Of a DNA stretch of 64,000 nucleotides, positions 60,001 through 63,000 are shown one piece after another. A program made the position numbers. The stretch comes from an uncultured Bacilli bacterium (GTDB lineage Bacteria; Bacillota_I; Bacilli_A; RF39; UBA660). Numbering within the stretch: the first letter of the stretch is position 1; every line of letters starts with the position of its first letter. The stretch lies in assembly GCA_949025205.1 (NCBI GenBank), contig CARMXJ010000001.1, positions 12,980 to 76,979 of the forward strand, read 5' to 3'.

Positions 60001-63000
60001 AATAAAGGAGGTATTTTTGGAACAAGAATTTTTTGACTTTTTACAAAGTAGTAGTAATTTGCAAACCTTTAATTATGGCAATAATTCAAAAATAATGGTA
60101 AGCAAAGTTAGCTATAATGATAAAGTAGATATTTTATATAGTTTAAGAAGTTATAGTGGTGAATTATTTAATTTAGATTCTCCATTCAAATATTCAGGAA
60201 TCTATGATAAAGAGAATAATAAATTATTTGATTTAGAATATAACATTAGATGTGATATTCTAAATTGGGATTATGGAGATGAAAGACTAATTGATAGTTC
60301 TCAACTATATGAGATGATTTCTGATGATGTTAATGATAAAATTAGAGAGTTAGTTAATGATAGTAAAGATGAAATATTTGATCTAAAAGATGCTGAATTA
60401 GGAGATGAGCTAACTGATAACGATGTTATTCATGATTTTATGGATGGTTATACATCTTCAACATTTGAAGATAACTATGTAGAATATTCAGCTAGTAAAC
60501 CAAAAGATATTTTAGATTATTTAACGAATAAAAAAGACTTTATTGAAGAAGACGCAAGAGATTTTATATTAAATCATCAATCAGAAATATTAAAAGGTCT
60601 TACTATTTCAAGAGAAAAAAGGAAGGCTTTAAAAAGAATTGAAGATGATGAAAATCATCTTTATCATAAAATAAAAGCTATCAGAAATTCTGTTAAAGAT
60701 AAAAATTATGTAACAATAAATTTAACTATTAACAAAGATGGAATTGAACAAACATTTAAATATAATGCTGCATCGCTTGTATCTAGTTATAATTCAAAAT
60801 TATCTTGTTATAATATTGAAAAGGTTTCTGATCGAGATAAATTTGAAGAAAATTTTGGTAGATGGAGTGATTTTGAATATAGAGATATTACTAAAATTAC
60901 TTATGGTAAAAACACAATCTATGAGGATGAAAACTTTAAAAATATGGATTTAGAGGAAGAAAATGTACCTACAAGATAGAACTAACATAGACAATTTTAA
61001 ACCATTGCTTGCAGATTATCTTGTAAATAAAAAAGGAATAAATAACTTAAATGGTTTATTTACTTGTTTGAATCCAGAACATGAAGACCGACATCCAAGT
61101 ATGGGTTATTATCAAAAGGCAAATAAATGTAATTGTTTTTCTTGTGGTGCTAAATATGATTTATTTGATTTAATAGGAATTGATTATAATGTGGATTCCT
61201 TTAAAGATAAGCTGGAAATAGCAAGCAATTTATATCCTAATGTAGAGATAGATGTACCTAAAGTTTATAATGTTTATTCATCGGATGATGATTATAAAGT
61301 AATTGATTTTACTAATTATTATGATAGATGCTCTAAACAGGTTAATAAAACAAATTACTTATCTACTAGAAATATTGATTCAAGTTTAATCGAAAAATAT
61401 AAAATAGGTTATGATGATAAAAGAGATATGATGGTATTTCCTATCAATAAAAATTGTTATTTTGGAAGAGGAGTTAATTCTAACATAAAACTAAAATCTA
61501 AAGGTACAAGTTATCTATGGAATGAAGATTTATTGAAAGATTATAACAATAATTTGATATATGTAACGGAAAGTATTATTGATTCTTTATCATTAGAAAC
61601 AATAAATAAAGATGTCAAAACAGTAGCACTTAATGGGCTACCAAATTATAAAAGACTTCTAAAAGTTATAGAAGAAAACAATTATAAAGGAAATTTAGTT
61701 TTAGCATTTGATAATGATAGAACTGGGATTTCTTATCAAGAAATAGTAAAGAATGAATTAGAAAAATTAGATATTCATTCTTTTTCTATTACATTAATTT
61801 CAACCATTGATGGTGTGAAAGATTTAAATGAAGCTCTAATGGTTGATCGAGAAAGATTAGAAGAAAATTTTAAATACTTTGATGAAAATTTTAAAATAAT
61901 AATTGAAAAAAAAGCAGAGGGGGAATTAAGTTTATGAAAAAAGTATTAAAAAATAATGAAGAAAATTTTATTGAATATATCGATTTACAAGTAGAAATTG
62001 ATACAGAAAAGAAAGTATTATATATTACCAATAAATCTTATGGTAACGAAGGAGTTGCTAAAAGATACAAAAATAAAAAAGACATTATGAGAATATTTGG
62101 TAATTATTTATTCAAAAAAGTTTATATTTATCCACCAAAAGATGAAAGATAATTTTAGATGGATAATAATCTTATAAAGAAAAAAATAAGTGAAAAAAAT
62201 AAAGCAAAAAAGAAATATTTAGAAAAATTAGAATTGTTAAAACAATCTTATGGAGTAGAATTTAAGATAGATAGTTTTAAAAATGATGATATAAATAAAA
62301 TCAGATTTTATAATATGAATTATCAAAAATCAATTAAAAATGTATCTATGGTTTATGATAATAAATATGGAAAATTTAACTATCTTTCTTATGATTATAG
62401 TGTTGAAAGAGATTCAAAAACTTTAAGTAACCATAAAATAATTGAAGATTTAAATAGAGAAAAGAAGTTGAAATTATTGGTGGATGAAATATTAAAATTT
62501 AATATCGAATATAAGCAAGAGCTTATGGAAATAGATAATAAATATAGCAATTCTAATCTAATATTTGAAGAAAAAGGAAAAGAATTAGAATTTGACAGAA
62601 AAGAGAAAAAAGAGTAGCTGTATTTACAATTGTATATACAAGTTTTTCCTTTAAATATAAGGATTTTCAATCAAAAAATAAGTGTCTGTATATACAAAAA
62701 GTCAGTTTTGTATATACATTTCGCAAGTGCGAAATGTGTTCTGGTGCACGAAAAATCGAAAAAAAGCCTTTATTTATAAGGCTTTTGAGATTTCGTGGTG
62801 TTTTCTCATATCCTGTTGAAAAATATTCTTCCTATTTTTGATTGAAAAGGGGTGATTTTTGAGATTATGGAATGTTATCGATTTACAAAAAGTGATTTAG
62901 TTTTACTAAGTAAGTTTATGAAAGAAAATGGAATAGATAATAAAACAGAAGCTCTAAGAGAATGTATTAAAAGAGGTGTAGCAAGACAAGATATTGATAG

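Follow-up and report, generated by a model that had tools for sequence, protein, structure and literature searches.

On comparative evidence, positions 62606-62820 of the window, by which the whole analysed stretch of 64,000 nucleotides is meant, are probably an oriT; the conjugative element to which it would belong is most likely integrative and resides in uncultured low-GC gut Bacilli. The oriT would be of the pWBG749/pLS20 type and is very probably a divergent new example of this known kind, built like the two plasmid origins. About 70 related loci have one common layout, consisting of lineage-specific repeats at fixed positions, an invariant hairpin, a long covarying hairpin, and an invariant box. 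An oriT-like layout had been proposed in the first-pass annotation of the window; it matches the anatomy that experiments have defined for the oriTs of pWBG749 and pLS20 (PMC4652767, PMC5313138, PMC5675868) and that is kept in these loci, but the interval flagged at the time misses the invariant block at 62805-62817. The non-coding gap, given there as about 230 bp, measures 234-249 bp from the stop of the upstream ORF (62617) to the next start (GTG 62852 or ATG 62867). It is followed on the same strand by two small genes (62867 and 63188) and the relaxase gene (63418), an order that is kept in the related loci with the gene set. The features are as follows.

62159-62617, plus strand: conserved 152-aa gene of unknown function, ending just before the candidate oriT, at the position of smpN in pWBG749
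62619-62628, no strand assigned: site 0, degenerate decamer TGTATTTACA with one mismatch, 2 nt upstream of site 1
62631-62640, no strand assigned: site 1, exact decamer TGTATATACA, candidate site for a dimer of the first small protein
62648-62662, no strand assigned: CCTTTAAATATAAGG, a small palindrome or hairpin that separates the repeat pairs, direct repeat D4
62687-62696, no strand assigned: site 2, exact decamer TGTATATACA
62709-62718, no strand assigned: site 3, exact decamer TGTATATACA
62716-62737, no strand assigned: inverted repeat ACATTTCGCA-AG-TGCGAAATGT
62742-62748, plus strand: TGGTGCA box
62747-62797, no strand assigned: long imperfect hairpin CACGAAA..AAAAGCCTT-TATTTAT-AAGGCTTTT..TTTCGTG, from an ssDNA fold
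62797-62802, plus strand: GGTGTT, degenerate second copy of the TGGTGCA box, immediately 5′ of the core box
62805-62817, plus strand: box C-CATATCCTGTT (CATATCCTGTT itself at 62807-62817), single-stranded, invariant in relatives, candidate oriT core
62867-63184, plus strand: first small gene, putative RHH-type accessory protein, 105 aa from ATG 62867 (GTG 62852 is also possible)
63188-63415, plus strand: second small gene, probably RHH-type, 75 aa; constant strand KRRSISIP
63418-64000, plus strand: 5′ part of the relaxase gene (194 codons), cut by the window end, from translation

The decamer cluster is far from chance. The three copies of TGTATATACA reported in the first-pass annotation, at 62631, 62687, and 62709, are all exact and lie within 88 bp, and the 64-kb window contains no further copy, the number expected under its first-order Markov model being 0.13. 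TGTATATACA is also the sole palindromic 10-mer of the window with three copies inside 120 bp. Its only nearby one-mismatch copy is TGTATTTACA, whose position holds a repeat in relatives as well. Together the four sites form two pairs with spacings of 12 and 22 bp from centre to centre. The wider pair consists of sites 2 and 3, and site 3 covers the outer 3 nt of the inverted repeat. The palindrome CCTTTAAATATAAGG nearly repeats the loop-proximal part of the long hairpin, and CCTT-loop-AAGG or a close variant is found at its position in most of the listed related loci.

Downstream of the decamers, the inverted repeat described earlier as ATTTCGCA-ag-TGCGAAAT (62718-62735) is present in that form, and its perfect arms actually reach 10 nt. 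The 16-nt centre TTTCGCAAGTGCGAAA (62719-62734) is invariant in all 18 aligned loci, whose relaxases are only 55-76% identical to the copy in locus L005 (near-identical to that of the window). The outer pairs of the hairpin covary (AU 8, CG 3, GC 3, UA 1, UG 1). Loci L028 and L037 have TTTTTGCA-AG-TGCAAAAA where the window has TTTCGCA-AG-TGCGAAA. In distant relatives TTTCGCAAGTGCGAAA is replaced by TTTTTGCAAGTGCAAAAA, a compensated C:G to T:A change. The AAGTGCG in this hairpin resembles the MOBQ nick region, AAGTGCGCCCT; the likeness spans 7 nt inside a stem and is not used as evidence.

The hairpin is followed by the TGGTGCA box, which contains the GTGCAC (62744-62749) that had been singled out as a palindrome. 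The hexamer is indeed there, but its palindromy is incidental, as relatives keep TGGTGCA with other bases after GGTGCA and are mostly non-palindromic. All aligned loci carry GGTGCA twice or a GCACC...GGTGC arrangement. The region of the long hairpin folds as ssDNA with −23.3 kcal/mol (z = −6.4 versus shuffles). Compensatory changes across loci occur in the inner stem, and 8 of 18 hairpin pairs show such changes. The outer stems differ between subfamilies yet stay complementary (GCACCTC/GAGGTGC, CGTGCCT/AGGCACG, TTGCCACC/GGTGGCAA). The gap thus has hairpin-forming repeats 5′ of the core whose structure is kept more than their sequence, as in oriTs of the pWBG749/pLS20 type. No known RNA element explains the hairpins, since an Rfam search of 61500-64000 (E ≤ 1) gave no match. 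Two other candidate features of the gap were discarded. Small ORFs of 49, 45, and 35 aa are not genes to judge by their conservation, which consists of hairpins and blocks with indels and follows no reading frame. A 14-nt perfect inverted repeat (62664-62677/62835-62848) loses its left arm even in L005, the 98% relative.

The most 3′ element of the gap is the core box, 12 nt that are invariant in 18/18 aligned loci; the box is also present at 53 metagenomic sites, where the search pattern contains it by construction. The exact MOB_MG core CTTATGCTCTT is absent at the window locus, and CATATCCTGTT stands in its place. By sequence, CATATCCTGTT is a variant core of the pWBG749/pLS20 type, because the box at the same place is identical to CTTATGCTCTT at 8 of 11 positions and distant relatives of the window relaxase have TTATGC(T/C)C boxes there. 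Inside the invariant block, TATCCTGT (62809-62816) fits YATCCTGY, the nick consensus (C/T)ATCCTG(C/T) of MOBP systems (PMC3772185). The nick is predicted between G62815 and T62816 of the plus strand because of this fit, with 62805-62817 as the most likely region, about 70 nt downstream of the interval flagged in the first-pass annotation. The 8-mer alone is weak evidence, since it occurs three more times in the window.

A nick at the foot of the TTTCGCAAGTGCGAAA hairpin (about 62716-62740, either strand) is unlikely; CATATCCTGTT would then be a binding site of the relaxase or of an accessory protein. No other element of the module is conserved as widely as this hairpin, which adjoins the third decamer, and the covariation of its flanks favours a structure over a duplex binding site. 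Its arms also resemble TTTTTGC...GCAAAAA in pLS20, an inverted repeat to whose edge the nick of that plasmid was mapped (PMC5313138). That repeat, however, is found on the opposite side of the core, relatives lack its GC-rich surroundings, and conservation of the pLS20 oriT in other Firmicutes plasmids is confined to the core region. In the pWBG749 family, genetic data put the nick within the core (PMC4652767), and a 12-nt block that is invariant, non-palindromic, and unpaired looks like the target of a relaxase active site.

The gap could also be regulatory and not, or not only, an oriT, with the decamers as operators for RHH autorepression and the hairpin terminating the upstream operon. Autoregulation is frequent among RHH accessory proteins; TraY and TraM are cited as examples (PMC5675868). 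A promoter-like TTGAGA-18-TATCCT (62785-62814) overlaps the box, a terminator-like hairpin lies at 62762-62786, and the long hairpin looks in its inner part like a weak bidirectional terminator, with a terminator scan match on the minus strand. Such a role is nevertheless improbable. Each of the four decamers is located 5′ of the terminator-like hairpin and 90-190 nt from the promoter-like site, which is a poor position for operators. The number of promoters in the region is that expected from shuffles (16 versus 13.0 ± 3.6). The second subfamily does not keep the −35-like hexamer and its spacing, whereas the box is invariant, and a −10 element is not expected to be frozen over 12 nt in a non-consensus form. 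A promoter is therefore insufficient to account for the invariant box. Finally, complete modules persist in gut metagenomes without a following RHH or relaxase gene, unlike an operator. Operator and oriT roles are compatible with each other.

The relaxase itself is divergent. Neither the window fragment nor its 98% identical full-length relative in L005 (480 aa) has a direct match in Pfam, NCBIfam, or PDB. The window fragment and the full-length proteins of L005, L016, and L019 also give no match to MobL or Relaxase at E ≤ 0.1. The family is small, with 81 representatives found among 1.84 billion proteins by profile search. Its profile retrieves proteins (E 1e-59 to 1e-33) that pass the Pfam cut-offs of both MobL (PF18555; 28.5 bits) and Relaxase; distant family members score 51, 44, 35, 43, 30, and 30 bits against MobL and pass the Relaxase cut-off as well. 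The candidate catalytic residues Tyr59, His177, His185, and His187 are invariant in the family, and the histidines follow the pattern H-x7-H-x-H. In the profile alignment with RelLS20, the relaxase of pLS20, Y26 falls on Y59 and H150/157/159 fall on H177/185/187, Y26 being an experimentally supported catalytic residue (PMC5313138). A direct hhalign comparison with RelLS20 alone is weak (probability 4%) and aligns the motif. For a 278-aa homologue, an AF2 model built on 13 aligned sequences has a pLDDT of 57, and its Foldseek matches are noise. The profile evidence supports the HUH protein as a divergent relative of MobL/MOB_MG relaxases and not a Rep, and so sustains the first-pass call of a relaxase.

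The contrary case, named in the same annotation as what would refute an oriT, was that the protein is a plasmid Rep; it was not borne out. A rolling-circle or other plasmid Rep, with the repeats as iterons or a double-strand origin, is very improbable here. HUH motifs are common to Reps and relaxases, and repeats beside an initiator gene are typical of origins. Searches of Pfam and NCBIfam, however, matched no Rep family whatever the threshold, profiles link the family to MobL and MobA/VirD2 relaxases, and the H-x7-H-x-H triad and N-terminal Tyr align with RelLS20. The gene also lies inside a T4SS gene block: genes for a VirB4-type ATPase (53434-55896), an M23 hydrolase (55896-56912), and a DnaG-type primase (60963-61937) precede it in the same orientation. 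In distant relatives a VirD4-type coupling protein is encoded just downstream of the relaxase. Copies are found both in a chromosome of 1.46 Mb and in contigs as long as 778 kb, and the element would for this reason be integrated and not an autonomous small plasmid. A tblastn search of the relaxase fragment against plasmids and megablast of 60000-64000 against plasmids and phages gave no match, and sensitive blastn of the gap against plasmids (PLSDB) gave chance-level matches only (E ~0.8).

Of the two small proteins downstream of the gap, both previously called RHH proteins, the first is borne out at the level of its family and the second is only suggested. Matches to DUF6290 were found in 6 of 13 members of the first-protein family and to RHH_1 in 2 of 13, with a best E of 6e-4; the window's own protein has no Pfam match. 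The best PDB profile matches of the first protein are the RHH proteins MazE9 and NikR, with the N-terminus in register and a weak E of 0.25-0.9. The second protein is suggested to be RHH-type by a fold that is weakly indicated. Its residues 7-43 match residues 2-38 of the NikR RHH domain in register and weakly (E 0.34), and its AF2 monomer has a strand at 10-14 and helices at 17-29, 35-50, and 54-74 at low confidence (pLDDT 58). The second protein has no Pfam match, and a Foldseek search with its model was empty. Both AF2 models, this one and that of the relaxase homologue, were used for secondary structure only. Neither small protein has detectable homology to Aux1 or Aux2 of pLS20. On the other side of the gap, the product of the 152-aa gene has no match in Pfam or NCBIfam, and an ORF with the same N-terminus lies upstream of the module in related loci with the complete gene set.

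The repeats stand at constant positions across lineages (about −89, −33, and −11 from the hairpin), but their sequences change. Loci L012 and L010 have relaxases that are 86% identical and second proteins with identical N-termini, and their repeats are ATAGTTG and GGGTTC, respectively. Their first proteins are 58% identical in the N-terminal 12 residues, compared to 83% in the remainder. Between L007 and L012, which have the same repeat, the first protein's N-terminal strand is 83% identical. The correspondence is not one to one, as the central strand position is K in L007 and L in L012 despite their common repeat. The decamer sequence thus appears to track the N-terminal strand of the first small protein, a correlation that is confounded by shared descent. 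The comparison supports the decamers as variable specificity sites and the invariant hairpin and box as the conserved part of the module. The accessory-protein sites proposed in the first-pass annotation are accordingly retained as candidate specificity sites, but they belong to the variable part and not to the conserved core.

The closest known architecture is that of the pWBG749 family of Staphylococcus, which uses the relaxase SmpP and the RHH specificity factor SmpO and whose oriT is composed of accessory repeats, hairpins, and the core CTTATGCTCTT (PMC4652767, PMC8136818). Its nick has been delimited to CCTTATGCTCTTACGG, and deletion of the core abolishes mobilisation (PMC4652767); a single N-terminal substitution in SmpO switches oriT specificity (PMC8136818). 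In both systems the gap with the oriT (a candidate here) lies directly upstream of an RHH gene (putative here) and a relaxase gene on the same strand, and upstream accessory repeats are followed by hairpins and, 3′ of these, by a short conserved core (CTTATGCTCTT versus CATATCCTGTT). Both also have specificity classes that are defined by the repeat sequence, an RHH or putative RHH protein whose N-terminal strand is its main variable part, and oriT copies elsewhere that lack a relaxase gene, some of them beside a truncated RHH gene. The window differs in having two small proteins instead of one, an extra invariant 16-nt hairpin, and a core that deviates at 3 of 11 positions. Its variable sites are palindromic decamers upstream of the hairpins, whereas those of pWBG749 are one arm of IR2 and an upstream site. 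The relaxase here is too divergent for Pfam MobL and has an N-terminal insertion of about 34 residues, and the element, which appears chromosomal, resides in uncultured gut Bacilli.

The gene order is that of pLS20 from Bacillus subtilis, where oriT-aux1-aux2-rel is the prototype of MOBL (PMC5313138, PMC5675868, PMC8829557). In both, the oriT (a candidate here) is followed by two small genes (putatively RHH-type here) and the relaxase gene in a conjugation operon, with a primase nearby, and the relaxases can be aligned with their catalytic residues in register. A short motif occurs three times in the 5′ half (TGTGCAT in pLS20), and after it both have a TGGTRC box with CGAAAAA, next a hairpin, next GGTGC, and last a core-like box. 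In pLS20, TGGTACCA, the proposed Aux1 site (PMC5675868), is followed by GGTGCC in the same order, and its box CCCCTTATGCTCTTT represents the core known from the pWBG749 family. The stretch from TGGTACCA to the core is conserved by blastn in plasmids of Listeria, Enterococcus, and Lacticaseibacillus. The sizes of the small proteins are reversed (105 and 75 aa here versus 79 and 147 aa for Aux1 and Aux2), the pLS20 repeats are direct 7-mers and not palindromic 10-mers, and pLS20 has no TTTCGCAAGTGCGAAA hairpin at that position. In pLS20, which is the sole MOBL member whose nick has been mapped biochemically, the cut was assigned to the opposite strand at GGCTTTTTGCtgccGCAAAAAGCC, an inverted repeat located downstream of the core at a distance of about 45 nt (PMC5313138). 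This downstream nick repeat is absent here.

A further likeness exists to the nick regions of the IncP/MOBP systems (TraI of RP4, VirD2 of Ti, Tfs4 VirD2 of H. pylori; PMC3772185). In the window, TATCCTGT lies on the strand with inverted repeats 5′ of it, and the histidine triad of the relaxase is of the MOBP/Q/V/L type. The relaxase is no recognisable MOBP member by Pfam, and 18 nt separate the end of the nearest hairpin (62797) from the predicted nick, while the repeat of MOBP oriTs ends about 8 nt before theirs.

In the proposed mechanism, the first small RHH-type protein would bind the TGTATATACA decamers as dimers or tetramers, which would confer lineage specificity and shape the DNA. The TTTCGCAAGTGCGAAA hairpin and the long hairpin at 62747-62797 would extrude or fold in the transferred strand and position the relaxase, possibly with help from the second small protein and its constant DNA-reading strand. 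The MobL-like HUH relaxase (Tyr59; His177, 185, and 187) would then cut the plus strand in CATATCCTGTT, probably between G62815 and T62816, and stay on the 5′ end. Since the plus strand would be transferred 5′ to 3′, the accessory and relaxase genes would enter the recipient first and the hairpins last, where they may serve termination.

RHH specificity factors, oriT cores, and oriT copies without a relaxase are already established in Staphylococcus and Bacillus, so the gain lies in extension and annotation and not in a new principle. The element is common in gut bacteria that are known only from metagenomes, as its second small protein is found unchanged on 198 contigs. Its relaxase is missed by standard family models, and typing by Pfam or MOB would call such elements and the islands with only an oriT non-mobilisable. 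The DNA signature TTTCGCAAGTGCGAAA-N60-90-CATATCCTGTT can be used to look for transferable DNA in gut metagenomes, and the comparative map can serve as a design for experiments on the variable decamers, the invariant hairpin, the invariant core, and the candidate specificity strand.

Complete copies without a relaxase gene sit on small chromosomal islands. Some of the islands have only a serine recombinase beside a tRNA gene, and a relaxase-less copy of the window's own TGTATATACA class is present on one (L052, 9830-10060). Tentatively, and with somewhat less than even confidence, these loci may represent a family of interchangeable oriT “locks” in uncultured, small-genome gut Bacilli, with the window's oriT as one class, to which the N-terminal strand of the first protein is the “key,” with one conjugative element mobilising relaxase-less islands in trans. 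If this is true, these bacteria would harbour a fleet of trans-mobilised islands of a kind that has so far been worked out mainly for staphylococcal plasmids.

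The palindrome cluster flagged in the first-pass annotation is real and not a product of chance. Outside its three exact copies the decamer TGTATATACA does not occur in the 64 kb (0.13 copies expected in the window under a first-order model), and it is the only palindromic 10-mer of the window with three copies inside 120 bp. Positions of the decamers and of the GTGCAC palindrome hold as first described. The neighboring perfect inverted repeat is also present, centered at 62726/62727, but its extent had been understated, and the gap that had been put at 230 bp spans about 240 bp, from the stop at 62617 to a GTG at 62852 or an ATG at 62867.

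Features of the gap
62159-62617, +: gene of a lysine-rich protein (~152 aa)
62619: fourth decamer copy with one mismatch, TGTATTTACA, two bases 5′ of the first exact copy
62631, 62687, 62709: exact decamer copies
62716-62737: inverted repeat with 10-nt arms, ACATTTCGCA/TGCGAAATGT
62744-62749: GTGCAC
62747-62797: long hairpin
62805-62817: unpaired box C-CATATCCTGTT

One common gap layout is found in 18 aligned loci, whose relaxases are 55 to 76% identical to the near-identical copy of the window's protein in the related locus L005. Short repeats occupy fixed positions at about -89, -33, and -11 from a 16-nt hairpin, with a sequence that varies by lineage (TGTATATACA in the window; TGTAATACA, ATAGTTG, GGGTTC, ATATCAAC, GTGCATATC, or GCATACC elsewhere), and a small palindrome, CCTT-loop-AAGG, lies between the repeat pairs. 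The hairpin core TTTCGCAAGTGCGAAA is invariant in all 18 loci and its outer pairs covary (AU 8, CG 3, GC 3); distant relatives carry TTTTTGCAAGTGCAAAAA in its place, a compensated change. On its 3′ side follow a TGGTGCA box, the long hairpin, whose stems differ between subfamilies with complementarity kept, and the invariant unpaired box. Folded as ssDNA, the region reaches -23.3 kcal/mol versus -8.7 for shuffles (z = -6.4); it matches no Rfam family. Judged by conservation, the 16-nt hairpin and the CATATCCTGTT box form the heart of the predicted origin. In a second subfamily, but not in the window, a gene for a hydrophobic protein of 47 to 51 aa separates the oriT core from the first small gene (L016 5300-5443, L001 5288-5443, L021 5270-5425, L020 3723-3869). 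The proximal oriT part is flanked by the two arms of a 14-nt perfect inverted repeat (62664-62677/62835-62848); since the 98% identical L005 does not conserve this repeat, it is probably due to chance.

The HUH gene is cut by the window end, leaving a fragment of 194 residues that is 98% identical to its full-length relative in L005 (480 aa). Neither protein has a match in Pfam, NCBIfam, or PDB, and an exhaustive profile search of 1.84 billion representatives recovered only 81 proteins in the family, which is invisible to standard relaxase models. Among the full-length members, however, the more distant ones score above the curated cut-offs for MobL (PF18555) and for the MobA/VirD2 nuclease domain (PF03432). 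These members were aligned with RelLS20, the relaxase of the Bacillus subtilis plasmid pLS20, and the alignment was compared with the window's family. The invariant Tyr59 thereby corresponds to Tyr26 of RelLS20, whose Y26F mutant has no nicking activity (PMC5313138), and H177/H185/H187 correspond to the histidine triad H150/H157/H159; an N-terminal insertion of ~34 residues is additionally present. The cut-offs passed and the residues in register argue that the HUH protein is a divergent relaxase of the MobL/MOB_MG branch of the MOBP-Q-V cluster. Structure models of the family were too poor to add information. The relaxase placement excludes a Rep protein, and the gap is unlikely to be a replication origin because of this placement and because copies are chromosomal.

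The G+C content is 23 to 31% throughout the window. Genes in the first 44 kb are housekeeping-like or accessory (two-component systems, ABC transporters, aldehyde dehydrogenase, RhuM genes, methylase), and all genes from ~46 kb to the window end lie on the + strand, where they make up the gene set of a Gram-positive conjugation system.

Gene order of the conjugation system
46344-50081, +: surface protein (1245 aa; thioester domain, nine SpaA-type repeats), immediately 5′ of the T4SS genes
3′ of it, +: VirB4-type ATPase, M23 peptidase, DnaG-type primase
after the primase, +: two small genes, the gap, two small genes, the HUH gene

The surface protein probably serves the element as its mating adhesin. 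The element's cargo may include two RhuM-family genes, a C5 cytosine DNA methylase, and a gene of the rRNA adenine dimethylase family (Erm/KsgA-like), which lie at 30672-31673, 32850-33884, 35419-36294, and 39173-40084. The conserved lysine-rich protein has no family match; its gene always stands immediately 5′ of the oriT, also in related loci with a complete gene set. Relatives stem from genome collections of human, mouse, rabbit, and deer gut, in MAGs labelled Bacilli, Tenericutes, and similar. They include one complete 1.46-Mb chromosome and one 574-kb contig, and the element therefore appears integrated.

In the pWBG749 family, mobilisation assays defined an oriT with accessory repeats AR1-3, hairpins IR1-3, and a core 5′-CTTATGCTCTT-3′ common to the family, pHT-beta, pMG2200, pMC189, and pGL5; the nick was narrowed to CCTTATGCTCTTACGG, and coreless clones were not mobilised (PMC4652767). 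The same core is found in pLS20 (CCCCTTATGCTCTTT, L027 12741-12757), in the order TGGTACCACGAAAAA, hairpin, GGTGCC, core. The window keeps this order with CTGGTGCACGAAAAA, hairpin, GGTG, box. Boxes of the form TTATGC(T/C)C occupy the same place in distant relatives of the window's relaxase, and the window box is identical to the MOB_MG core in 8 of 11 positions. Element order and relatives' boxes together indicate that the window box is a variant of the pWBG749/pLS20 core. Its sequence includes TATCCTGT, a fit to the MOBP nick consensus (C/T)ATCCTG(C/T) (PMC3772185). On these two grounds, the nick is predicted to lie in the box, most likely on the + strand between G62815 and T62816. A nick at the foot of the 16-nt hairpin is a live rival, since biochemical mapping put the pLS20 nick on the opposite strand, at an inverted repeat that lies ~45 nt 3′ of the core (PMC5313138), with arms (TTTTTGC/GCAAAAA) similar to the invariant hairpin. 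In a blastn search, the part of the pLS20 oriT shared with plasmids of Listeria, Enterococcus, Vagococcus, and Lacticaseibacillus runs from TGGTACCA to the core. It is the core region, ~45 nt upstream of the published nick site, and not the published nick repeat that is conserved in plasmids of other Firmicutes genera, and the relation of the two in pLS20 may merit re-examination.

Within the module, the oriT unit of repeats, hairpins, and core box, it is the decamers that vary, so they are best read as lineage-specific accessory or specificity sites rather than as the catalytic target. Each is two-fold symmetric, as expected for a putative site of one RHH dimer, and the pair spacing of 12 and 22 bp would suit tetramers. 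The family of the first small protein (62867-63184, +, 105 aa) matches DUF6290 in 6 of 13 members and RHH_1 in two. Its N-terminal strand is its most variable part and shifts with the repeat class. The contrast is clearest between L012 and L010, whose relaxases are 86% identical and whose second-protein N-termini are 100% identical, with repeats ATAGTTG versus GGGTTC: the N-terminal 12 residues of the first protein are 58% identical versus 83% in the remainder. L007 and L012 share a repeat, and their first-protein strands are 83% identical. This tracking resembles SmpO of pWBG749, an RHH tetramer with two specificity sites to bind in each oriT, for which one N-terminal substitution is enough to switch specificity (PMC8136818). 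In the second small protein (63188-63415, +, 75 aa), for which an RHH fold is weakly indicated, the strand KRRSISIP is constant across all repeat classes of its subfamily, which makes it a candidate reader of an invariant element.

A metagenome scan with the pattern TTTCGCAAGTGCGAAA-N60-90-CATATCCTGTT yielded 53 sites in 52 loci. By HMMs of the three downstream proteins, all three genes are present in about half; at least eight sites, with 1.8 to 8 kb available downstream, lack all three, and at four the first small gene, whole or in fragments, is the only one present. The full module with class-specific repeats is kept at all of these relaxase-less and first-gene-only sites.

Complete modules with reduced downstream gene sets
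L052 9949-10047: no relaxase or small genes; repeat class TGTATATACA, as in the window; XRE/SSB pair on one side, two-component system on the other
L050 10031-10130: none of these genes; order tRNA-Gly, large serine recombinase, oriT, cargo
L070 2739-2837 and 5138-5238: none of these genes; two module copies 2.4 kb apart
L046, L056, L061, L066, L088: none of these genes
L059, L063, L071, L072: only the first small gene or frameshifted fragments; no second small gene or relaxase in ~1.9-3.3 kb downstream

Four other contigs carry an oriT near-identical to that of L050 with matching flanks. These copies resemble staphylococcal plasmid oriT mimics, and the first-gene-only sites recall Staphylococcus oriT copies beside truncated smpO genes; the analogy suggests small relaxase-less islands that would be mobilised in trans. 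The copies may alternatively be decay products of formerly complete elements. In the decayed modules of L002 (5573-6819), L003, and L004, which adjoin housekeeping genes (sigma-70, tyrosyl-tRNA synthetase region), the relaxase gene is truncated at its N-terminal end and accompanied by a small gene of 74 aa. In L024 (5133-6624), on the complete chromosome, the relaxase reading frame is fragmented and the oriT intact. That complete modules persist without an accessory or relaxase gene downstream speaks against a purely regulatory gap of operators and a terminator. Three further points make this reading weak: the terminator-like hairpin comes 3′ of the decamers, promoter-like sites do not exceed their frequency in shuffles, and the second subfamily does not conserve the -35-like element. 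Autoregulation may be a second function of the gap beside the oriT.

The oriT reading of the first-pass annotation is thus supported by the relaxase placement and the conserved layout, with the correction that the interval it had marked (62627-62735) does not include the CATATCCTGTT box. Among systems of the pWBG749/pLS20 kind, that of the window is a divergent variant. Its principle is already known, yet the family escapes the standard models for relaxases and is common in gut metagenomes, as the second small protein occurs unchanged on 198 contigs.
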